The translations under genes and the position numbers were made by a program. Below the pieces are notes generated by a model. That model was given only the letters and a program-made list of their open reading frames with translations. It was not told the origin of the DNA and ran no database searches. Of a stretch of DNA of 44,602 bases, positions 8,664 through 24,469 are shown in pieces. Origin of the DNA: Promethearchaeati archaeon. GTDB lineage: Archaea > Asgardarchaeota > Heimdallarchaeia > JABLTI01. The DNA is taken from positions 1-44,602 of the forward strand of contig JABLTI010000019.1 of NCBI GenBank assembly GCA_013166835.1, given 5' to 3'. Each line of letters starts with the position of its first letter. Position 1 is the stretch's first letter.

Positions 8664-8739
8664 TGGTAGCCCGGGGCGGATTCGAACCGCCGTCCCAGGA
8701 TTCAGAGTCCTGGATGCTTGGCCCCTACACTACCGGGCT
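8664..8739 (-). tRNA. tRNA-Gln (anticodon CUG), intronless, CCA encoded
   Basis: Minus strand AGCCCGG...CAGGA-CTCTGAA-TCCTG...GGTTCGAATCC...CCGGGCT-ACCA; A1-U72 pair typical of archaeal tRNA-Gln. Confidence 0.96.
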
Positions 8740-14074: not shown

Positions 14075-14515
14075 CTATGATTTAGCTATTTTTGCTAAAC
14101 CGCCTGCTTTCTTTATTTTTTCTGTTGCAGAAGCAGAGAAAGATTCAGCAATAACTGTCATCTTTTTAGCTTTACCTTTACCTATAACTTTGGTAACACC
14201 CATTTTGGTTGTGTCGATAGTAACATCTTTACCAACTTTCGTTGCATAGCCTTTCTTTACGAACTCATCGATTTTCTCACTTATTTCGCCGATATTTATC
14301 GCTTTTTGTGGTGTAGATGCTCTAGGTGGTCTAACGAAACCTTGACTTCCGAACTTTCGTCCTTCTTTTATGGAACGCATCCATTCATGACGGGTCCCAC
14401 CAGCATTACCAACGCCACCTCTGCTACCAGCTTTCTTGTGACCTTTCTGGATTCCGTACCCATGATGCATGCTTCCTCGTTGTTTTCTTACTTTTCGTTT
14501 AAATCTTTGAACCAT
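14075..14515 (-). CDS. rpl15: 50S ribosomal protein uL15
   Basis: RKQRGS..HGYG, GSRGGVGNAG, EKIKKAGG. Confidence 0.96.
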   Translation of the reverse strand: MVQRFKRKVRKQRGSMHHGYGIQKGHKKAGSRGGVGNAGGTRHEWMRSIKEGRKFGSQGFVRPPRASTPQKAINIGEISEKIDEFVKKGYATKVGKDVTIDTTKMGVTKVIGKGKAKKMTVIAESFSASATEKIKKAGGLAKIAKS

Positions 14516-14531
14516 TATTATCCCTCACATT

Positions 14532-15011
14532 TCACATCATTCTTACAAGAAGATCGTTAATCTTCTCACCTCTGTAACCTAAGTCACCACCTCTGGTGAT
14601 GGGGTTTTTGACACTTTTGAAACCTTTTCTGGGAGGATGTAGTCTAAATATGGGTTTTAGACCATCAATATGACGCATGTCTGCTTTACCATCAAATACT
14701 GCTGTGATAAATGCCGCTTTGCTTTCAAATTTGTGTTCTTTCAAGAATTTAACGTCGATTTTCTTGTTACCTCTGAGGCGACCACGTTTATTAATCAAAT
14801 CTGATAAAGTTGTTTTGTTGATTTCACCCCAGGTAACTACATCTTTTAGTTTTTGTAGCATGCCTTTATGAGTGCCATCATCTGGAACAACAACAGCATG
14901 ATTGGGTCGTGTAAGATTTATCAATTTAAGAGCATGTTTAATATCTTGAGGTTGATCAACTGTACCTCTGATTCTTACAACTGCTAGTAATCCGGTTTGC
15001 TTCTTTGACAC
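14532..15011 (-). CDS. rpl30: 50S ribosomal protein uL30
   Basis: AVVRIRG, VTWGEI, FRLHPPRKG, GDLGYRG. Confidence 0.96.
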   Translation of the reverse strand: MSKKQTGLLAVVRIRGTVDQPQDIKHALKLINLTRPNHAVVVPDDGTHKGMLQKLKDVVTWGEINKTTLSDLINKRGRLRGNKKIDVKFLKEHKFESKAAFITAVFDGKADMRHIDGLKPIFRLHPPRKGFKSVKNPITRGGDLGYRGEKINDLLVRMM

Positions 15012-15031
15012 TTTCTACACATCCTTGGTTT

Positions 15032-15652
15032 CTATCTACCCCAGTCTCTAGGGGTCATTATTTTATAAGTACCCTTTAAAGCTTCAAATGTTGCTTTAGC
15101 AAAGTTTGAAGTTGTTCTAGTTTCTCCTCTTGTCTTTGTCCAGATATCAGTGATACCTGCGAGTTCAAAAACAATTTTTCCAACATTTCCTGCTGCTAAA
15201 CCTAATCCTTTTGGAGCTGGTTTGGCAATCACAACGCAATTTCCAGTTTTACCTCTGGTTTGGAAGGGAATACTATGAGGATCATGACAGGAACATTCCC
15301 AAGAACCACATCCTCTTCTAATTGGGGATAAACGCAATTTAGCATCAGTAATCGCTTTACGAATAGCTGGGCCAATCTCCTTTGTTTTTGCTTCACCAAT
15401 ACCTACAAAACCATTTCGGTTGCCTACAGCAACACAGGCTTTAAATCTTGATTTCTCACCAGCATCGGTTTGTCTTTGGACAAGATTGATGTTAATTACT
15501 TCATCTTCTAGATTTGAAACTAAAGTATCGATAATTTCTTCTTCAGAAATCTTCAGTGATTGCTGGAAGATCTCATCTATAGAGGTAATTTCACCTTTTT
15601 TGACCATTCGACCGAGTTTTGTTTTTGGTTTCCATTCATGTAATTCTGACAT
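15032..15652 (-). CDS. rps5: 30S ribosomal protein uS5
   Basis: WKPKTKLG, RRGCGSWECSC, NFAKATF. Confidence 0.97.
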   Translation of the reverse strand: MSELHEWKPKTKLGRMVKKGEITSIDEIFQQSLKISEEEIIDTLVSNLEDEVININLVQRQTDAGEKSRFKACVAVGNRNGFVGIGEAKTKEIGPAIRKAITDAKLRLSPIRRGCGSWECSCHDPHSIPFQTRGKTGNCVVIAKPAPKGLGLAAGNVGKIVFELAGITDIWTKTRGETRTTSNFAKATFEALKGTYKIMTPRDWGR

Positions 15653-15658
15653 TTTTCA

Positions 15659-16519
15659 TCACTTCTTTGATTTTGTACTTGTGGGTTTTTTGGTAGTGGG
15701 TTTCTTAGCTGTCGAGCTTGTTGTTTTCTTGGTTGTTGTAGTTGGTTTCTTTGCAGTGGATGTGGGTTTCTTAGTAGTGGTAGCTGGTTTCTTTGCAGGA
15801 GTTGTAGTTTTCTTCGGAGTTGTTTTTGGTTTAGTTGTAGTTGGTTTCTTTGCAGGAGCAGTTTTTGCTTTGGCTTTTGAAGCTAGATTCTTTTTGTTTC
15901 TTGTTCCAAGTTTAGCCTTCATCGTACCAGAAGTAGATTCTGCATCAATAGCTTTAATTGCAGCTTTGAAGTATGTCGGTAAATTTTCTGGTTTTGCAGT
16001 TGTTTTCTTATAACCTGAAAATTGCTTGTCGTACTTCGCAGCACTTTTCTTCTTTAGTGCTACAGCATAATCTGCAATGGTCTTTCCAGTATAGCGATCT
16101 TCTGATGGGAAGATAGCCTTATCATGAGGAATTTTTAATCCTGCATGAATAGCACCAGCAAGCATTGCTGAGATTCTAGTGTCTTTTCGACAAGTATTAA
16201 CGCCAATATCAAGAATTGCATCTTTTACTCCTACTGCCTTAGCATATTTACCAGCAAGATAACCTGTTAAATATGCAGAAGGAACATTACCAGTAGCACC
16301 TTTCCAGCCATATTTTTTAAGATGCTGGGAACTAGCATCAACTAGTGTCTCATCACCAATTACTTTGGCTTGTATGATACTTACTCGTTCATGTTTGTTA
16401 GATCTTCTAACAACTAATCGATTCTTTCTTGATCTGAGTAGACGTTTTCGTCTATGGAAATTTGTTTTTCCTTCTCTTCTTCTTCTAAATTGAACGTGAT
16501 AACTTGCACCTTTTGCCAT
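15659..16519 (-). CDS. rpl18: 50S ribosomal protein uL18 with basic low-complexity C-terminal tail
   Basis: FRRRREGKTN, SAYLTG, ILDIG; likely start MAKG. Confidence 0.96.
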   Translation of the reverse strand: MAKGASYHVQFRRRREGKTNFHRRKRLLRSRKNRLVVRRSNKHERVSIIQAKVIGDETLVDASSQHLKKYGWKGATGNVPSAYLTGYLAGKYAKAVGVKDAILDIGVNTCRKDTRISAMLAGAIHAGLKIPHDKAIFPSEDRYTGKTIADYAVALKKKSAAKYDKQFSGYKKTTAKPENLPTYFKAAIKAIDAESTSGTMKAKLGTRNKKNLASKAKAKTAPAKKPTTTKPKTTPKKTTTPAKKPATTTKKPTSTAKKPTTTTKKTTSSTAKKPTTKKPTSTKSKK

Positions 16520-16524
16520 CTCAA

Positions 16525-17049
16525 TCACGTACTCCTTTGGGCCTTCTTCGAGCTAGTAACACGGAGTTCACGCATAACAGCATCAACTTCTGGTAACTTT
16601 CGTTTAGACATTCTGTTATCTTGAATATACATTCGAAGATAATTTGCTGAACGAAACATTCCTCCTTTTGCTCGTAAATAGAGCAAACGATAGGTTGCTT
16701 TATCGATGAAGTTTTTATCTCGTAATACTTTCAGGTAAGCACGTTGCTTCCTTATTCGATTGATCCATTCTCTTCTTAAATCAGTTCGAGCAGCTTTTCG
16801 TCCTTTTCGACTACCGTGCCCTCGTCTTTGTCCTTTAATTCTTTTGATGTGGAGTTCTCGGGCTCTACCTCGACTGATGCCTTGTATTTTTCTAGCTTTA
16901 ATAGCACCACTATGAATTAATGCACGAATATCTCTTCTAGTAAGGGCCATTTGAACTTCATCTGCAGCATCAGGATCAATATAAACCCTATTGACTCCTA
17001 TGCCTAGTATGTCTGCTGCAATGCTTCTTTGTGTTTTCAAATCAGTCAC
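16525..17049 (-). CDS. rpl19e: 50S ribosomal protein eL19
   Basis: TRRDIRALI, GSRKG, LYLRAKGGMF. Confidence 0.96.
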   Translation of the reverse strand: MTDLKTQRSIAADILGIGVNRVYIDPDAADEVQMALTRRDIRALIHSGAIKARKIQGISRGRARELHIKRIKGQRRGHGSRKGRKAARTDLRREWINRIRKQRAYLKVLRDKNFIDKATYRLLYLRAKGGMFRSANYLRMYIQDNRMSKRKLPEVDAVMRELRVTSSKKAQRST

Positions 17050-17062
17050 TTTTCATCATACC

Positions 17063-17851
17063 TCACTTTGATTTTTTAGTGGTAGCCTTTTTTGTTGTGG
17101 TTGATTTTTTACTAGAAGTGGATTTTGTTCCTGAAGATTTAGAACTTGATGTTTTCTTTGTTGTAGTTTTCTTAGGGGCAGCGGTAGATTTCTTTGGTGT
17201 TGCTTTAGTAGCAGGTTTTTTGGTTGTAGATTTCTTTGCGGGTGGTTTCTTTGTGGTAGTGGGTTTTTTAGTAGTGGTAGTTTTCTTTCGAGGAGTTGGT
17301 TTTCCAGCAAGTTCTGCTTCTATTCTATCCAATTCTTCAATCTCCTTTTGAGTTAGGGAACTTTTAGAAGGCTTCTTCTTACGAGGAGCCTTGTCCTTTG
17401 GTTCTTTTTTGTCTTCCTCTTCAAGGAGTAATTCTTCAGAAATTTCTGAAATTGTGGCAAATGTTAATGCTTCTTCTGGACGATTAATGATTTTGATCTC
17501 AAGCTCATCGGCTTTGTTTGTAATTGCTACCTTTTTTCTGGTGCCGACGGTGGAGGCAATCCTGACAACTTGAGTTTCTTTTTCGATTGCATCTAAATCA
17601 TTGGTGTTGTGAATCAAGACTTCAACTTTACCCGTTCTTGTTAGACCACGAGTAGCTTTAGGCCCTCTAAAACCAACTCTGACAATAGTTGGAATGCCAC
17701 GTTTATGATGTCTCATGGAATTATCGATACCAATAGGCTTGCGCCAACCAGTTTTTAATCGTTTATATCGCCAACTTTCTTGTCTTCTGAATTTTGGTCG
17801 AGACTTACGTACCTTTTCTCGTACTCGTAATAATCTTTTGTCAACAGTCAT
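17063..17851 (-). CDS. rpl32e: 50S ribosomal protein eL32 with long C-terminal extension
   Basis: PKFRRQESWRYKRL..WRKPIGIDN. Confidence 0.96.
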   Translation of the reverse strand: MTVDKRLLRVREKVRKSRPKFRRQESWRYKRLKTGWRKPIGIDNSMRHHKRGIPTIVRVGFRGPKATRGLTRTGKVEVLIHNTNDLDAIEKETQVVRIASTVGTRKKVAITNKADELEIKIINRPEEALTFATISEISEELLLEEEDKKEPKDKAPRKKKPSKSSLTQKEIEELDRIEAELAGKPTPRKKTTTTKKPTTTKKPPAKKSTTKKPATKATPKKSTAAPKKTTTKKTSSSKSSGTKSTSSKKSTTTKKATTKKSK

Positions 17852-17863
17852 CTTTTACAACTC

Positions 17864-18424
17864 CTAATCAATACCTACATATTGAGCTGATAACCAAATT
17901 CCATCCATAAATCTTCGAGGATCTTTGTGGAATTTCCCACGAAGTTTACAGACTTCTTGGATGTTAGCTGATGTTTGGCCGACATGTTCTTTATTTATGC
18001 CAGTGATGATAATTTCATCACCCTCAACTTTCACTTTTACATCATTACCTAAAATCTTAGCTTTTCGGGGATCGCGTTGCCCGTAAAGATTTTTGATAAT
18101 GACTTCTTGTGGCTTAATATCTACTGTGATAGGAAAGTGAGAATATACAATAGTTAATTTGTAGGTATACCCTTGAGTTACTCCTGTGATCATATTTCTT
18201 ACATGAGCAGCAATTGTACCTAACATTGCTAATTCTCTTTTTCTTGGAAAAGCTACAGACAATTTCAAGTCACCCTTGATAGCTACCATTTTGACTGGTT
18301 CGCCTGTGAAATCTCTTTCCAAGAGACCCTTAGGTCCTTTAACAGTTACCTTCATGTTTTTGAGTTCTAAGGTAACTCCTTCAGGAGCTTCTACAGTTTT
18401 TTCTGCTAAGACAGCTTTTGGCAT
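17864..18424 (-). CDS. rpl6: 50S ribosomal protein uL6
   Basis: VKGPKG, VYSHFPI, DPRRFMDGI. Confidence 0.97.
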   Translation of the reverse strand: MPKAVLAEKTVEAPEGVTLELKNMKVTVKGPKGLLERDFTGEPVKMVAIKGDLKLSVAFPRKRELAMLGTIAAHVRNMITGVTQGYTYKLTIVYSHFPITVDIKPQEVIIKNLYGQRDPRKAKILGNDVKVKVEGDEIIITGINKEHVGQTSANIQEVCKLRGKFHKDPRRFMDGIWLSAQYVGID

Positions 18425-18444
18425 TTATTTTTTCCCACCATTAT

Positions 18445-18837
18445 TTAGTAGACAAACGCTAGGAGTCTTCCTCCTATGCCCAATGCTTTCGCATCTTCAT
18501 GACTCATCACACCTTTTGGTGTGGAGACAATCAGAATTCCAAGGTCTCGTGCAGGAAGGAATTTTTCTTCCCAAGACTCGAATTCTTTATGCTTAACTGG
18601 AAAGCGTGGTTTTATTACCGCACATTTGTTAATCCTACCTAGCAATTGCACTTTGAAGATACCAGCTCGATCATCATCAATGAATTCAAATTCACCGATG
18701 TACCCTTTAGATATCATCACCTTAATTACAGATGAAATTAGCTTTGATGCTGGTTTCAAGTAAACTTCGCGTTTTCCTAGAACTTCTGCGTTTTGAATGT
18801 TGTTCATTGCGTTTGCTAGTGTGTCTAATAAAGGCAT
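18445..18837 (-). CDS. rps8: 30S ribosomal protein uS8
   Basis: [21 protein letters not shown]. Confidence 0.97.
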
Positions 18838-18871
18838 ATTTTGTCACCTTCTTCCTTTACCAAAGAGGATT

Positions 18872-19054
18872 TTATCCTCCGTGGCCTCCGTATTTTTTGA
18901 AACCGACTGTGGTTGCTACTTCTCTGAAGCAACGTCGACAAAGATTCAACCCGTGTCTTCGAATAAGTCCTTCTCGTGCACCACAACGGGTGCATTGTCG
19001 GGAGCCTTTACCATATTTGACAACTTTTGGTTTTGTACCTGATCCTTTTGCCAT
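18872..19054 (-). CDS. rps14: 30S ribosomal protein uS14 (Zn-binding)
   Basis: [12 protein letters not shown]...[13 protein letters not shown]. Confidence 0.96.
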
Positions 19055-19064
19055 ATTTCTTCAC

Positions 19065-19613
19065 CTATTCTACGGTAATTCCTAATTCGGTTTCAGCGAA
19101 AACAATCGCTTCATCTCTAGATATCCTGTGCTTCCCAGGTATCTTTCTCGGTGATCTGAATCTTCGTTTCACCCGAAAACCTGGACGTTCTAAAGAAAAG
19201 AAGACATCCAGTCCTGTTACTCCAAGATTTGGGTCATATTTTGTTTCTAATATATCGATGTGTTCTCGGATACCAAATCCAAAATTCCCTTCTTTATCGA
19301 AAGCTCTCTTGGAAATTTTGAAATCTCGCATATCAAACAATCTTGGAATTAGTTTCATAATTTTATCTTGATTACGAATTGTTACTTTAGCTCCAATAGG
19401 TTCGTGTTGTCGTATTCCAAATTCTCTAAAGGTTCTTCTAGCCTTTGTTTCAACGGTTTTCATTTCACCTATGGATTCTATGATTTTCTTCACACGTTCA
19501 AGTGCTTCCCCGGATTCTCCTACACTACAATGTATGATTAAAGAAGCAACTTTTGGTTTACGCATTTTATGCTGTTCCCATTCTTTCAGAAAATCTTCTT
19601 TTGTCTTGGTCAT
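19065..19613 (-). CDS. rpl5: 50S ribosomal protein uL5
   Basis: VGESG, FGIR, GNFGFGIREHID, ERPG; likely start MTKTKE. Confidence 0.96.
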   Translation of the reverse strand: MTKTKEDFLKEWEQHKMRKPKVASLIIHCSVGESGEALERVKKIIESIGEMKTVETKARRTFREFGIRQHEPIGAKVTIRNQDKIMKLIPRLFDMRDFKISKRAFDKEGNFGFGIREHIDILETKYDPNLGVTGLDVFFSLERPGFRVKRRFRSPRKIPGKHRISRDEAIVFAETELGITVE

Positions 19614-19615
19614 TT

Positions 19616-20365
19616 TTAGGTATCTCCTTTGGTTGTAGTCCACCAGGGTGATTTTTCACCAAGGACGAAGATATATTCGGGGGTAGTTTGTACTTCTGTT
19701 CCATCATGTGTTGCTAGAGTTACTGTGGAAGCTCTAGGACCAAAACGCCATTGGAATTTCTTTATGGAACCATTTTTTGCTACGTTTTTACCTGCAACAA
19801 TAATCGCAAACATGCCTTCCTTAAATGGAAAGTGATTAACGATTTTTTGTGAAGGAAGATTAATTATTATCGTATCTTTTGTGTTGTATTTGTTATCAAT
19901 GCCTTCTTCTTTTGGTAGACGAATATTCCTACCATCATGAAGATTCAATTGCATGATTCCACCTTTTATTGTGGTTTTACCCATGATTTGACAAGCTTTT
20001 GAGAGTTGAGAGGTTTTCTTCATTTCAAAAGGCATCAATACATGGAGTTCATGGGGAAGGATTCGATAACTTTTGTTTATATCTGCTATCTCGACGACAT
20101 CCATTAATCCAACTGGAAAACTGAGATTGGTTACAATTCTTCCATCAATTTTCACAAGCTTCTTGTTAAGAATAATCTTGAGTTCTCTTGCAGTATTAAC
20201 TATTTTTAGGACATCTCTTAGAAGGATTCCTAATGGAATGCAATTCTCTTTACTATGAGGTCCGGGATCAGCTCTAAATACAAATTTATGCTTCTTACGA
20301 GGCAAGGACCAATTTCTGGGAGAAGCAATTCTCTTTTGATGTTTTGAACCACCAGTTTTTGTCAT
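19616..20365 (-). CDS. rps4e: 30S ribosomal protein eS4
   Basis: HQKRIASP, PGPH, FPVGLMDV, LHDGRN. Confidence 0.97.
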   Translation of the reverse strand: MTKTGGSKHQKRIASPRNWSLPRKKHKFVFRADPGPHSKENCIPLGILLRDVLKIVNTARELKIILNKKLVKIDGRIVTNLSFPVGLMDVVEIADINKSYRILPHELHVLMPFEMKKTSQLSKACQIMGKTTIKGGIMQLNLHDGRNIRLPKEEGIDNKYNTKDTIIINLPSQKIVNHFPFKEGMFAIIVAGKNVAKNGSIKKFQWRFGPRASTVTLATHDGTEVQTTPEYIFVLGEKSPWWTTTKGDT

Positions 20366-20382
20366 ATTTTTTCACATTCCTT

Positions 20383-20790
20383 TTAGTTTTCTACCTCAGC
20401 TTCCTCATCTGTTTGAGGAAGTCTTCGATCTACGACAGCTTTTCTTCCTTTATCCTTCATATTCTTCAAGTTAATAATCTCACAATTACAAGCTTGAACT
20501 GGAAAATGCTGAGAGGATCCATCTGATTTTTCAAAAGTAACTCCTTCAATGGTTAATCTCATATATTTATAATCAACATTTGAGACTTCACCTTCAATTC
20601 CTCTGAAGGAACCTTTTCGGATTCTGACAGTATCTCCTTTACGAATAACTAATTGCTTAATCCCTTCTTTTTCAGCCAAAACCTCAGAGAGGGGAGCAGT
20701 TAGCTTCTTTCGTTTTGTATGTAAAGGAGCAGTATAGAGCTGCTTTCTTTTCTTTGAAGGTTGTTTTGTGATTGTACGATTCTTCTTCAT
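20383..20790 (-). CDS. rpl24: 50S ribosomal protein uL24
   Basis: QPSKKRK..YTAPLH, IRKGDTVRIRKGSFRG. Confidence 0.96.
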   Translation of the reverse strand: MKKNRTITKQPSKKRKQLYTAPLHTKRKKLTAPLSEVLAEKEGIKQLVIRKGDTVRIRKGSFRGIEGEVSNVDYKYMRLTIEGVTFEKSDGSSQHFPVQACNCEIINLKNMKDKGRKAVVDRRLPQTDEEAEVEN

Positions 20791-20821
20791 TATTTTTCAT
20801 CTCCACTGGTACTGCTAATCC

Positions 20822-21238
20822 TTAGACGATTGTACTAGCTGTGTGGGCCACTCTGGGCCATCTTTCCGCAGCTTCTTTTGCTACTGGACCACGAATTTCG
20901 CTTCCTCGCGGACTGCCTTCGGGGCTGGCAATAACAGCAGCATTATCTTCAAATTGTACCCAAAGACCATTTGGTCGTCGGTACATTTTCCTCTGACGAA
21001 TCACTATTGCTGGGAGAACTTGTCGTCTCATCTGAGGTGTTCCTTTCTTAACAGAAACGATAACCATATCTCCTACTGAAGCAGTAGGATAACGATTTAG
21101 ACGACCTTTGAAACCTTTTACAGCAATTATCTGTATGACTTTTGCTCCGGTATTATCTGCACATGTTAAACGCGTGCCTACACTAACACCTTTGCTTAGT
21201 CTTGGTAATGAGATTCCGATCACTTTTCTTCTTGCCAT
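20822..21238 (-). CDS. rpl14: 50S ribosomal protein uL14
   Basis: [27 protein letters not shown]; likely start MARRK. Confidence 0.97.
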
Positions 21239-21261
21239 ATTAAAGTCTCCTTGCAATCAAT

Positions 21262-21606
21262 CTATTCTTGCATTTCCTCCTTAGGACTTTCCTTTGCAAT
21301 GACAACATAGGAGATAGTTTTACCTAATGGTCTACATTCGATGATAGTAACATTATCACCTTCTCTAGCATCAATGCATGGAGGATTGTGTGAACTAATT
21401 GTTGTATGTCGGCGTTCATATCGTTTGTATTTCTTCACGTAGAAGAGAAAATCTTTCCGCACTACAACTGATTTTTGCATTTTGTGACTAGTAACGGTAC
21501 CATTGATTATCCTTCCACGAACTCGAAGTGTGCCATGAAATGGACAATTATAGTCGTCACACTCAGTTTCTGGATCAGGAACATCGATACCAATATATCT
21601 GGACAT
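21262..21606 (-). CDS. rps17: 30S ribosomal protein uS17
   Basis: CPFHG.L.VRG, KYKRYE, ECRPL.KT. Confidence 0.97.
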   Translation of the reverse strand: MSRYIGIDVPDPETECDDYNCPFHGTLRVRGRIINGTVTSHKMQKSVVVRKDFLFYVKKYKRYERRHTTISSHNPPCIDAREGDNVTIIECRPLGKTISYVVIAKESPKEEMQE

Positions 21607-21612
21607 TATTTT

Positions 21613-21918
21613 TTACCACCTTTTACGCATTATATTTTTGAGTCGATTTTCTGGTTTTAATTTCAGTAAGCATCCATCCACATCCACCTGTTCTCCAGAA
21701 GGAAGACTGAATCGGAAGACACAATCTTTCTTTGGAATTCTTACACGATTTGAATCATTTTCTGATGATTCTATTGTTAACAGATTTTTTGTTTCATCAA
21801 CAACAAGACCATTCATACCCAACATTTGTTTGTCTGTGGATTGTATGATCTCGATTTTCAAACCTATCAACTCGTGTCTATGAATATTTTCAGGTGTTAT
21901 AGGGTTCAAGCTCACCAT
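21613..21918 (-). CDS. rnp1: RNase P protein component 1 (Rpp29/POP4)
   Basis: ITPENIHRHELIGL, GLVVDETKN, PENRLK. Confidence 0.95.
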   Translation of the reverse strand: MVSLNPITPENIHRHELIGLKIEIIQSTDKQMLGMNGLVVDETKNLLTIESSENDSNRVRIPKKDCVFRFSLPSGEQVDVDGCLLKLKPENRLKNIMRKRW

Positions 21919-22108
21919 TCTCTTTCATTACAGTTAATATTCTAGCTATTGTTCTTTTGACTTCTTTAACTCGACTTGGTTTTTCCAAGGAACCACCAGT
22001 TGAGATTCCGGCTCTTAAATGAGCTAGGTCTTTCTGAAGTTTCTTCAATTGATTTACTCTTTGATTCGCGGTCATATACCGGATTTCACGCATTTTTAGA
22101 ATTGCCAT
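21890..22108 (-). CDS. rpl29: 50S ribosomal protein uL29
   Basis: MAILKMREIR, KRTIARILT. Confidence 0.95.
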   Translation of the reverse strand: MAILKMREIRYMTANQRVNQLKKLQKDLAHLRAGISTGGSLEKPSRVKEVKRTIARILTVMKENGELEPYNT

Positions 22109-22122
22109 TTGTCAAGTTGCTC

Positions 22123-23238
22123 CTACTTTTTCTTTTTCTTCTTCTCATCTTTATCAGATTTGGAGGACTTGGTATCTGTTTTCTTTGTTGCAGTCTTCTT
22201 GGGAGCAGCTTTCTTTGCAGTAGTTTTAGGTGTGGTTTCTTTCTTTGCAGGTTTGGCTTTTGGTTTTGCTTTTTCTACTTCTTTCTTGACTGGTTTCTTT
22301 GCGGTAGTTTTTGGTTTGGCAACAGCTTTAGTGGCTGTTGGTTTTGTTGTCTTTGCTTTCGCTGCAGGTTCCTTTTTAGTAGGTGTTGTTTTCTTTGCAA
22401 CAGGTTTCTTTGCTTTCTTTTCTTCACCAGGAGTTTTCTCGATGAGATCAGAAAGCTCTTCAACTTTAATATCAAGATCTGTCTTCTTTTTGGTAACTGG
22501 GACTTTTTCTTTAGCCTTTGGTTTCTCTTCTTTCTTTGCAGGCTTTTCTTCCTTCTTAGGAACTTCTTCTTTCTCGGTTACTGGTTTAACAGGTTTGATT
22601 TCCTCAACATCAGGAACAAATTCATGTGTATCTTCATCCAAACGAACAGAAAGAATATTGATTTCATCTGGTAAAGGAATATCACCTCTCATTATACTAA
22701 CAGTAACACCGATAGTTCCGAGTTTCATAACTGCAGTGGCATTTGCTCTCTGAACGAGTACAGAACCAATTTCACCACTCTTGGCTAAAAGACCCATTCT
22801 ATAAGCTTCATGACGAGAACGTTTACTGGTTAATTTACCAGCTATGATTATTTCACAACCTTTTGCTCCTGCATTTACAATTCTGCGGAGAGCAGAATAG
22901 GCTGCACGTCTACGATGAACTCCACGTTCAATGGCAGAAACAAGGGAGTATGCCATTACTTGAGCGTTGGTATCGGGATTAGTAACTTCTTTTACTTCAA
23001 TTTGGGGATTTTCAAAACCGTAATTATTTACTAATTCATCAGTAATATTTCTGATGTTTTTTCCTCTTCGACCTATAACTATCCCTGGTCTTGAAGCATG
23101 AATGGTAAGTCTTTCACCGAGAGGTGTTTTTGCAATATCAACACCACCGTAACCAGCTCGTGAGAGTTCTTTTGCTAAGTATTCATCAATTCTTGCTTGA
23201 CGAACACCTTTCTTTATGAAATGATTAGTTGCAGACAT
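22123..23238 (-). CDS. rps3: 30S ribosomal protein uS3 with long C-terminal extension
   Basis: RPGIVIGRRG KH motif, GAKGCEIIIAGKL, GTIGVTVSI. Confidence 0.96.
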   Translation of the reverse strand: MSATNHFIKKGVRQARIDEYLAKELSRAGYGGVDIAKTPLGERLTIHASRPGIVIGRRGKNIRNITDELVNNYGFENPQIEVKEVTNPDTNAQVMAYSLVSAIERGVHRRRAAYSALRRIVNAGAKGCEIIIAGKLTSKRSRHEAYRMGLLAKSGEIGSVLVQRANATAVMKLGTIGVTVSIMRGDIPLPDEINILSVRLDEDTHEFVPDVEEIKPVKPVTEKEEVPKKEEKPAKKEEKPKAKEKVPVTKKKTDLDIKVEELSDLIEKTPGEEKKAKKPVAKKTTPTKKEPAAKAKTTKPTATKAVAKPKTTAKKPVKKEVEKAKPKAKPAKKETTPKTTAKKAAPKKTATKKTDTKSSKSDKDEKKKKKK

Positions 23239-23241
23239 GAT

Positions 23242-23703
23242 CTAGACCTCTTCTATAGCTATTTCAACATGTGAGAGATAATTAAACCGTGGGGATGATG
23301 ATCCTTGGGCTCTGGGAATAAAACGCTTTATGATCATTCCTTTGTGGGTAGCAGCGTGAATAATCTTCATTCTTTCGACATCCAAACCCTTGAATTCAGC
23401 ATTGTTCTCAGCGTTTTCTAATACTTCAAGAATCCTCTTTGCAGCCTTGATTGGGTAACGCCCAGCAGGCCATTTGGAAAGTTCTTTTCGATGAGCAACA
23501 TGTTTCTTGTGACGTTTGTATGGAACAGCGGCTTTCATCTGTATGACATCTTCAAGATACTCCTTTGCTTTGTCAAGGAACATACCTTTGATTGTGTTAC
23601 AAATTTCTCTAGCAGCTTTCGGACTAATGTCAATTTCTCGTGCACTTGAAATGGCAGTACGATCCGGATCTAAGCCGAAAATCGAATATCCATATTGGGG
23701 CAT
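23242..23703 (-). CDS. rpl22: 50S ribosomal protein uL22
   Basis: ISPKAAREIC, GRYPIKAA, PRAQG, SHVEI; start ATG 23703 or 23709. Confidence 0.97.
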   Translation of the reverse strand: MPQYGYSIFGLDPDRTAISSAREIDISPKAAREICNTIKGMFLDKAKEYLEDVIQMKAAVPYKRHKKHVAHRKELSKWPAGRYPIKAAKRILEVLENAENNAEFKGLDVERMKIIHAATHKGMIIKRFIPRAQGSSSPRFNYLSHVEIAIEEV

Positions 23704-23739
23704 ATGCATTTCCTCAATGTCAATGTATTTTCTTTCTCT

Positions 23740-23910
23740 TAATCGTAAAGACGACTATTTTGTTGGGTTTCAACCCAAGCTTGGAATTGATTTTTAATCC
23801 AGAGAATGTCTATTCCTGGAACCTCCAAGAGGCATGACTCCCCTTCTGCACCTTTGTGCAAGGTCGGAGCCCAATTATGCAAACGCTTAGAGAAGTTCAG
23901 CGTTGCAGTG
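23740..23910 (-). ncRNA. Candidate structured cis-regulatory leader RNA of the uL22 operon
   Basis: Five consecutive stem-loops with minus-strand G-U pairs, locally GC-richer than the flanks, between a TATA box and rpl22. Confidence 0.7.
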
Positions 23911-23931
23911 GAACAGAATTTGAATAATCAC

Positions 23932-23946
23932 TTTAAAAATCTTCTG
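23932..23946 (-). promoter_or_regulatory. BRE/TATA promoter of the ribosomal protein operon
   Basis: Minus strand CAGAAGA-TTTTTAAA about 25 nt upstream of the first leader hairpin. Confidence 0.55.
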
Positions 23947-24172
23947 TCTCTTTCTAACATAAAATTAACAGGATTTAATGTTAAAATTATACTTAATTTG
24001 AGGTAACTAGAATGGTATAAAAATTTACTTTCTAATGCTAAAAATACATCAAAAATCTCTTTTTAAAGAGAAATGTTCATATAATATTTTTTCATGTAAT
24101 AGATAATTAGCGTGAAAACGACTAAAGAATGGAATGCCTACTAAGCATTTTATATAAGCTGGGGGGCTTACA

Positions 24173-24469
24173 ATGGCTAAAAATTTAAATGAATTTATAG
24201 TGAGAAGAAAGGATGGACTAAAAATCTGCAAAATATGCCAAAGCATAATTGAAGATGAAGAAGACCATATGATGCGAAGACATCCTAAATATATGAAATA
24301 TATTGAGAAAAGAGAGGAGAAAGAAGAGAAGTATATGTGTTGCTACTGTGGATTGTGGGTGAAGAATTGGCGCGCTCATGTGAAAGATCAACATCCAGAA
24401 ATCATTGCAGATGCTGCAAGAAGAGTTAAGCCGGAACCAGAAGAAGAAGAATTCGAGTTTTCTTTTTAG
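24173..24469 (+). CDS. Small double C2H2-type zinc finger protein
   Basis: Two C-x2-C-x9-H-x4-H motifs; TTTATATA box ~20 nt upstream suggests a leaderless or short-leader mRNA. Confidence 0.8.
   Translation: MAKNLNEFIVRRKDGLKICKICQSIIEDEEDHMMRRHPKYMKYIEKREEKEEKYMCCYCGLWVKNWRAHVKDQHPEIIADAARRVKPEPEEEEFEFSF

Follow-up and report, generated by a model that had tools for sequence, protein, structure and literature searches.

The leader of the Escherichia coli S10 operon consists of several hairpins, is bound by L4 and exerts autogenous control, partly by way of a terminator hairpin with a run of U. The element treated here is of similar size, is likewise built of several hairpins, and stands before an operon with uL22, uS3, uL29 and uS17 in an Asgard archaeon; unlike the S10 leader it has no U-run, uL4 is not in its operon, and no homology between the two was detected. 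It is a predicted RNA leader upstream of the ribosomal protein gene uL22, read on the minus strand of a 44,602-nt stretch (positions 1 to 44,602) of contig JABLTI010000019.1 (assembly GCA_013166835.1) from a Promethearchaeati archaeon of the Heimdallarchaeia, and by the window we mean this whole stretch. All genomes compared are metagenome-assembled genomes (MAGs).

According to the available part of the report by Eckert and Weinberg (2020), just a handful of RNAs that regulate in cis have been confirmed or predicted in archaea, and the archaeal ribosomal-protein leaders (r-leaders) named there, L4-Archaeoglobi, eL15-Euryarchaeota, S15-Halobacteria and S15-Methanomicrobia, include none that concerns uL22 or Asgard archaea (PMC7247131). 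As characterised in that text, these leaders are covarying structures of the 5' untranslated region (UTR), are restricted to a lineage, as is the uL22 leader, and have had their ligands inferred from the downstream genes (PMC7247131). The uL22 leader differs from them in the gene that it heads, in its Heimdall lineage and in its larger size (five hairpins, about 200 nt), and from known r-leaders in having no Rfam match and no resemblance to ribosomal RNA (rRNA). The excerpted accounts of the L7Ae leaders describe an archaeal ribosomal protein that binds a K-turn in a 5' leader and controls translation (PMC5539422, PMC6298567); here the bulges of the second hairpin, H2, lack the K-turn arrangement, and L7Ae is not in the operon. 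A long 5' UTR on a ribosomal-protein operon is also known from a methanogen, where, in the portion of Qi et al. (2017) at hand, processing of the 5' UTR raises stability and translation, this regulation lies upstream of the ribosome-binding site, and the cleavage sites carry a uridine signature, as opposed to the conserved folded domain of the uL22 leader (PMC5499594). In the literature, with subscription-only papers outside the search, we found no ribosomal-protein leader or comparable structured non-coding RNA for Asgard archaea. If its function holds, the uL22 leader is a new family among the ribosomal-protein leaders.

Layout and fold of the uL22 leader

On the minus strand the parts follow one another as promoter block, ACTGC motif, five hairpins, A/G-rich linker, Shine-Dalgarno (SD) sequence and uL22 start (Table 1). 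They were compared in 16 distinct full leaders, which were left when a record truncated at a contig end, another without its promoter side, and duplicates had been removed. The TATA box is identical in all 16, the promoter block as a whole is 65-100% identical among relatives, and a 25-mer search allowing up to 6 substitutions found no second close copy of the block elsewhere in the genome. The spacing from TATA box to start is established archaeal promoter geometry. Because of this spacing, and because ACTGC with its predicted start A is invariant among relatives, transcription is predicted to begin near 23909, one base before H1. The longest open reading frame (ORF) of uL22 begins at 23709; the second ATG, at 23703, is the start that is conserved in all relatives and is correctly spaced from the SD, which is present as GAGGA(A/T)A in 16/16 sequences. 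With the gene starting there, the predicted leader runs from 23909 to 23704 and is 206 nt long. It forms a G+C island, with 44-49% G+C at 23750-23899 against 20-26% at 23900-24149. An earlier note on this DNA had proposed a leader of some 200 nt behind a TATA box, richer in G+C than other intergenic DNA, and the box, the length and the difference from the upstream flank all agree with it.

The minimum-free-energy fold recovers H1, H2, H3, H4 and H5, and places H1, H2 with its two GA bulges, H4 and H5 on the minus strand exactly where the earlier note had them. The judgements on H4, H5, the outer H3 stem and the K-turn were made by eye. For H3 the inner, local pairing stands, while the outer stem proposed for it, CTTGGA with TCCAAG (23829-23824 with 23785-23780), was rejected, as none of the four closest relatives retains it and it is specific to the window genome; an apparent compensatory change in this long-range stem in one relative (G010) is more readily put down to a longer H4. 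The CCTC/GAGG stem that had been regarded as a competitor of H3 turned out to be a conserved hairpin, H3a, which contains an SD-like GGAGGT and is invariant in 15/16 distinct sequences.

The folding energy of the single sequence beats chance weakly, with a z-score of -2.13 on the minus strand, where 7/200 shuffles fold equally well, and of -1.87 on the plus strand. As these values are close, the argument that G-U pairs favour the mRNA strand is weak by itself, and the real support for an element on that strand is comparative.

Table 1. Features of the uL22 locus in the window, and counterparts of the 5S-like RNA in other genomes of the class
Feature	Position	Strand	Basis or remark
Promoter block: conserved upstream element, purines like those of a transcription factor B recognition element (BRE), TATA box	23932-23956	-	invariant TATA, block conservation
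TATA box TTTTTAAA	23939-23932	-	sequence, invariant in relatives
Predicted transcription start, invariant A of ACTGC	23909	-	30 nt past first T of TATA box
H1, 9-bp stem, one bulged U, 11-nt loop	23878-23907	-	fold and covariation
H2, 6 bp, 5' GA bulge, 3 bp, 3' GA bulge, 5 bp, variable loop	23836-23871	-	fold and covariation
H3a, hairpin GCCTC-TTG-GAGGT	23821-23833	-	conserved sequence
H3b, 9-bp stem, one bulge, loop of variable length	23798-23820	-	covariation
H4, hairpin of variable sequence	23763-23778	-	per-sequence folds
H5, hairpin around conserved core GTCTTTACGA	23740-23757	-	conserved sequence
A/G-rich linker, predicted mostly unpaired	23716-23739	-	ensemble folding
SD, GAGGAAA	23709-23715	-	conserved as GAGGA(A/T)A
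uL22 gene, head of operon	23242-23703	-	Pfam Ribosomal_L22, 4.4e-26
Operon remainder, first nine: uS3, uL29, Rpp29, uS17, uL14, uL24, eS4, uL5, uS14	14075-23238 (with the last eight)	-	Pfam
Operon remainder, last eight: uS8, uL6, eL32, eL19, uL18, uS5, uL30, uL15	14075-23238 (with the first nine)	-	Pfam
98-amino-acid protein, two CxxC-x9-H-x4-H motifs (C2H2-like)	24173-24469	+	divergent neighbour; possible partner
Permuted 5S counterparts	G005:C89:84570-84725; G016:C1:2238489-2238633 and 2590542-2590707; G077:C1:1285099-1285254; others		

Conservation within one family

When 41 related genomes were searched at the DNA level, the element turned up in eight of the ten genomes of the same genus and partly in the sole genome of the second genus of the family, which we call f1. 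The two remaining genomes of the genus lack it because of assembly gaps: uL22 has no match in G002, and its match in G003 begins at residue 77 near the end of the returned stretch. A pattern derived from H1 further matched 8 metagenome contigs and 9 genome records of Heimdall-group MAGs. In 16/16 distinct sequences, the second genus included, the leader stands directly upstream of uL22, and it was never found away from this gene. A covariance model of H1-H3b (R1) found one copy per genome in f1, wherever the stretch is assembled, and nothing credible in 71 genomes of the other families of the class, where one match reached 22.5 bits (E 0.16). The regions upstream of uL22 in families f3 and f2 have no motif in common with the leader. 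Identity to the window within the genus is 79-94% over the H1-H3b core, on a level with that of the coding sequence of uL22 (78-95%). The spacer lying upstream of the promoter reaches 54-62% in eight of nine relatives, and the H4-H5 part 50-71% in the same eight.

That relatives should show conservation and covariation had been set beforehand as a test, and both were found. In a MAFFT alignment of nine genus sequences, built without regard to the structure, both sides change in 7 of 37 pairs, where shuffles give 3.1±1.2 (1/500 as high), and 97.9% of the cells pair, while slid partners do so in 33-49%. An alignment fitted to the model, with 17 distinct rows and by its nature leaning toward the structure, gives 11 of 37 pairs against 4.3±1.2 (0/500 shuffles as high) and 97.6% of cells pairing against 32-49%. 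The covarying pairs are one in H1, two at the apex of H2 and six of nine in H3b, which is the best-covarying helix. The single H1 pair occurs as A-U, U-G and C-G, and another wobbles; in H2 an apical A-U becomes G-C in 4/15 sequences, and a C-G becomes U-A. The bulges and lower stems of H2 are invariant within the genus, and the loop of H1 is conserved as GAAYTTNTYTA. The second genus retains the stem sequence of H1 and the basal 6 bp of H2. That the stems covary while the 11-nt loop of H1 and the GA bulges do not vary is a pattern typical of a protein site.

The remaining hairpins are conserved in other ways. As H3a does not vary in the genus, covariation neither supports nor contradicts it. 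At the position of H4, folds of the relatives have a G+C-rich hairpin of 3-8 bp between H3b and H5, with unrelated sequences and judged without a formal count. The 18-nt hairpin sequence of H5 is identical in 10/16 distinct sequences, and the variants in the others still form a hairpin. The linker behind H5 has a mean unpaired probability of 0.31-0.74. Comparative sequence analysis thus indicates that the element is a family-restricted, single-copy, conserved structured RNA on the mRNA strand.

Possible functions of the leader

Oligo-U tracts are a known termination signal in archaea. In this A+T-rich genome and its relatives, 15/16 leaders, of 200-236 nt, contain no run of four or more U. The 240-nt spacer upstream holds seven such runs (by eye), and T-runs appear only after uL15, the last gene of the operon, with five U-runs within 60 nt past it. 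Given this depletion, polymerase likely reads through into uL22, and the element would be a 5' leader that is co-transcribed with the 18 tightly packed genes (Pfam) of the operon.

With moderate confidence we take the element to be a 5' leader that binds a protein and tunes the operon, the protein being most likely a ribosomal one made from that operon. From the sequences we infer a start site, co-transcription, binding of a protein, and a direction and mechanism of regulation, as follows. Transcription would start at the strong conserved promoter before H1 and continue through the leader into uL22. H1, H2, H3a and H3b, the 5' two-thirds of the leader, would form an autonomous folded domain, in which the invariant nucleotides of loop and bulges could be the docking site of a protein. 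The ligand would most likely be an operon-encoded ribosomal protein in excess over free rRNA, and its binding would lower the expression of the operon. Since over 80 nt separate the folded domain from the SD, with which it is not predicted to pair, control would more likely act through the stability of the mRNA, its 5' processing or the elongation of transcription than by direct occlusion of the ribosome-binding site.

Several observations weigh against this explanation. The covarying sequences are close kin and represent few independent events, H3a is without variation in the genus, and the pairing register of H5 is ambiguous. There is no U-run for an attenuator to act on. The SD is about half open, and its pairing probability with the CCUC of the leader is 0.02 or less in 12 of 16 ensembles. 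By eye, an A/T-rich stretch between H5 and the SD in some relatives is a possible second promoter. Nor is there a likeness to rRNA: blastn-short of five leaders against the genus's 23S and 16S loci yielded words of 9-14 nt only, a fuzzy search for leader motifs in rRNA left six motifs of 17-21 nt unmatched and matched a 10-mer at chance level only, R1, run with filters off, did not exceed 4.6 bits in sense on 23S and 16S, and R2, a covariance model of the 5S-like RNA described below, scored at most 4.5 bits on the leader. The best R1 match around the rRNA loci, of 14.1 bits, lies in a flank. The earlier note had thought of an r-leader and of rRNA mimicry; a conserved structured element on the mRNA strand between promoter and uL22 exists, and the mimicry was not found, with nothing above chance against 16S, 23S and the 5S-like RNA of the genus.

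Two short words of H2 were judged to be chance. The 5' strand at 23861-23871 (-) has 11 bases exactly complementary to 16S at about 298-308 (L043, L045; E about 1.5), and a shifted 11-mer has a sense match in 23S near position 1245 (E about 1.5).

Some more specific forms of control were considered and rejected. A simple switch in which CCUC would compete for the SD, with GGAGGT as decoy, is not supported in view of the low pairing between CCUC and SD just given, and the flanking bases lack covariation (by eye). A pseudoknot of the H1 loop with the A/G-rich stretches downstream would require complementary words that by eye stand at inconsistent places and look like low-complexity chance. A K-turn consists of a three-base bulge and tandem sheared G-A pairs, with GA opposite, next to a canonical stem; the GA bulges of H2, separated by 3 bp, sit on opposite strands, and each lacks the partner that it would need, which speaks against an L7Ae element. 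A leader peptide was likewise rejected: the 47-amino-acid ORF at 23739-23882 starts with TTG, the AUG ahead of CCUC becomes GUG, GCG or UCG in relatives, open frames across the leader are not conserved, and the loops of H2 and H3b differ in length by non-multiples of three among relatives.

A different explanation, possible though rather unlikely, is that the RNA is made in step with the ribosomal proteins for a purpose of its own, as a separate small RNA gene or as a stable RNA cut from the operon transcript. The strong, invariant promoter with its predicted start right at the terminal hairpin would suit this, as would the core of about 112 nt (H1-H3b), which has no interaction with the SD in predicted ensembles and is separated from it by sequence of poor conservation (50-71% identity in eight of nine relatives). 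Endonucleolytic processing in the 5' UTRs of archaeal ribosomal-protein operons is moreover documented in the accessible part of the methanogen study (PMC5499594). What speaks against such an RNA is that no terminator-like U-run follows the core or H5 in 15/16 sequences, that it was never found away from uL22, and that it looks like none of the known classes. The earlier note had expected no Rfam hit, and a search of Rfam 15 (4227 models, r-leaders and riboswitches among them) gave a tRNA at 8667-8739 as the only window match at gathering score, nothing that overlaps the leader in the window at E up to 10, and no match in the leaders of three relatives at E up to 5. By eye there are no C/D boxes and no ACA box with a pocket, and the C/D-box and H/ACA readings were rejected. 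RNase P RNA and SRP RNA are located elsewhere in five genomes of the genus, as is the 5S-like RNA, and the leader is hence not a housekeeping RNA.

It is also unlikely, in our judgement, that the leader or the upstream element of its promoter is the target of the C2H2-like protein encoded by the divergent neighbour, as a lineage-specific regulator-operator pair instead of autogenous control. The gene adjoins the uL22 promoter divergently in 16/16 distinct loci, and within the class its protein family has the same range as the leader, being confined to f1 (12/12 against 0/71 genomes). This adjacency and common range may, however, reflect a single origin at shallow divergence and amount to about one observation. 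The protein has an acidic C-terminal tail, and its AlphaFold2 model (predicted local distance difference test, pLDDT, 75) has two beta-beta-alpha units whose nearest structures in Foldseek are nucleic-acid-binding C2H2 fingers, at non-significant E-values above 0.1; no Pfam family reaches its cut-off. Each genome carries one paralogue. Its neighbourhood, taken as a test of a ribosomal link, consists of metabolic and not ribosomal genes, and the test gave no ribosomal association. For these reasons (the Foldseek values, the Pfam matches below cut-off and the surroundings of the paralogue) the tie between protein and leader is a lead and not a finding. That leader and finger protein together form a dedicated RNA-protein or promoter-protein switch, by which operon output would be set in this Heimdall family, we regard as quite doubtful; if true, ribosome synthesis would here be under an archaeal zinc-finger regulator, one that arose together with the split that made uL22 the head of its operon.

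There is a slim chance that the structure senses nothing, and as a ligand-free 5' end only protects the operon mRNA from 5' exonucleases or sets its processing. H1 starts one base past the predicted start, and processed or structured 5' ends stabilise archaeal ribosomal-protein mRNAs in the part of the methanogen study referred to above (PMC5499594). Protection would require pairing only, yet the 11-nt loop of H1 and the two GA bulges of H2 show no variation or almost none, which indicates specific recognition. Chance hairpins in a promoter-proximal spacer, conserved by close kinship alone, are hardly credible and already disfavoured: the modest z-score with its similar value on the opposite strand and the origin of all homologues from one family would fit, but the core is far more conserved than the flanking spacer, compensatory changes exceed the shuffled and slid controls, and the G+C island and the depletion of U-runs also speak against it.

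An apparently permuted 5S rRNA and the history of the operon

The Rfam model RF00001 found no 5S rRNA in the family, and its cut-off was passed in only 4/83 genomes of the class. As none was found in the genus either, a 5S identity was considered for the leader. It was rejected, for a 5S-like RNA lies elsewhere, on contig G000:C173, and its model has no match to the leader. This RNA, which began as a weak syntenic candidate of 156 nt at G000:C173:37004-37159 (+) (L128:1524-1679), has the parts of 5S in circularly permuted order. In the Rfam alignment model positions 48-120 come first and 27-51 downstream, so that the gamma domain, together with the helix I 3' strand, precedes loop A, helices II and III, and loop C. 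The consensus folds into a three-way junction like that of 5S, with a tetraloop closing helix I and with the ends of the RNA paired in a helix from loop C. All 490 of 490 cells of the alignment pair, and 7/49 pairs are compensated against 3.4±0.9 in shuffles. R2 matches, mostly over the full length, in 75/83 genomes of the class, among them 14/14 of high quality, and in every family but f6; the permuted order was seen in alignments from four other families.

From these alignments the 5S rRNA genes of the class appear to be circularly permuted. Permuted 5S is known for organelles, and permuted 23S for Pyrococcus, as far as the excerpts of the two reports go (PMC4267664 and PMC7758197); we found no report of a permuted archaeal 5S in the literature. 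The observation may matter more widely, for rRNA annotation, for quality metrics of MAGs and for ribosome evolution in the class. The 23S matches in three genomes (G008, G009 and G005; L038-L040) measure 3259, 3389 and 4282 nt against the 2987 positions of the model, and the genes must therefore carry large insertions, be it expansion segments or introns.

The leader and the 5S-like RNA are alike in coarse terms only: in each, a capped hairpin is followed by a linker of 6 nt and by an arm, of 6+3+5 bp in the leader and 6+3+4 bp in the 5S-like RNA, that purine-rich loops interrupt. The operon encodes uL5 and uL18; RF00001 has no match to the leader at E up to 10. That H1, linker and H2 act as a structural stand-in for the permuted 5S of the family, bound by uL18/uL5 or by the finger protein, is only weakly allowed, because the covariance models see no similarity.

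Three proteins of the operon are extended. In uS3 (22123-23238, -), of 371 amino acids, the Pfam domains end near residue 182 and are followed by a tail rich in lysine, glutamate and proline, and eL32 (262 amino acids, domain at 18-123) and uL18 (289 amino acids) are longer too. A tRNA-Gln (CTG) gene at 8664-8739 (-) is the sole Rfam or ARAGORN match in the window.

The gene in front of uL22 differs between the families of the class. uS19 stands directly before uL22 in f4 (4/5 genomes sampled) and f6 (3/3), and is inverted and about 400-480 nt away in f3 (9/9). In the genomes sampled from f1 (2), f2 (1) and f5 (1), and in one genome of f4, it is missing within 1.4 kb upstream of uL22, and the sole uL22 locus of f7 has too little upstream sequence to judge. 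Given this variation, uL22 became the head of its operon in several families, of which the one with the leader is an example. In f3 the gene has a conserved promoter of its own and a conserved, weakly structured 5' UTR of about 110 nt, and in G016 of f2 a long hairpin lies upstream of uL22 in the same place (by eye).

The leader shows how a new operon head gained a new control region after the operon had been split. Its core, of about 112 nt, would be a defined and compact RNA whose candidate ligands are clear, and may offer a way into the balance of ribosomal proteins in the closest prokaryotic relatives of eukaryotes.

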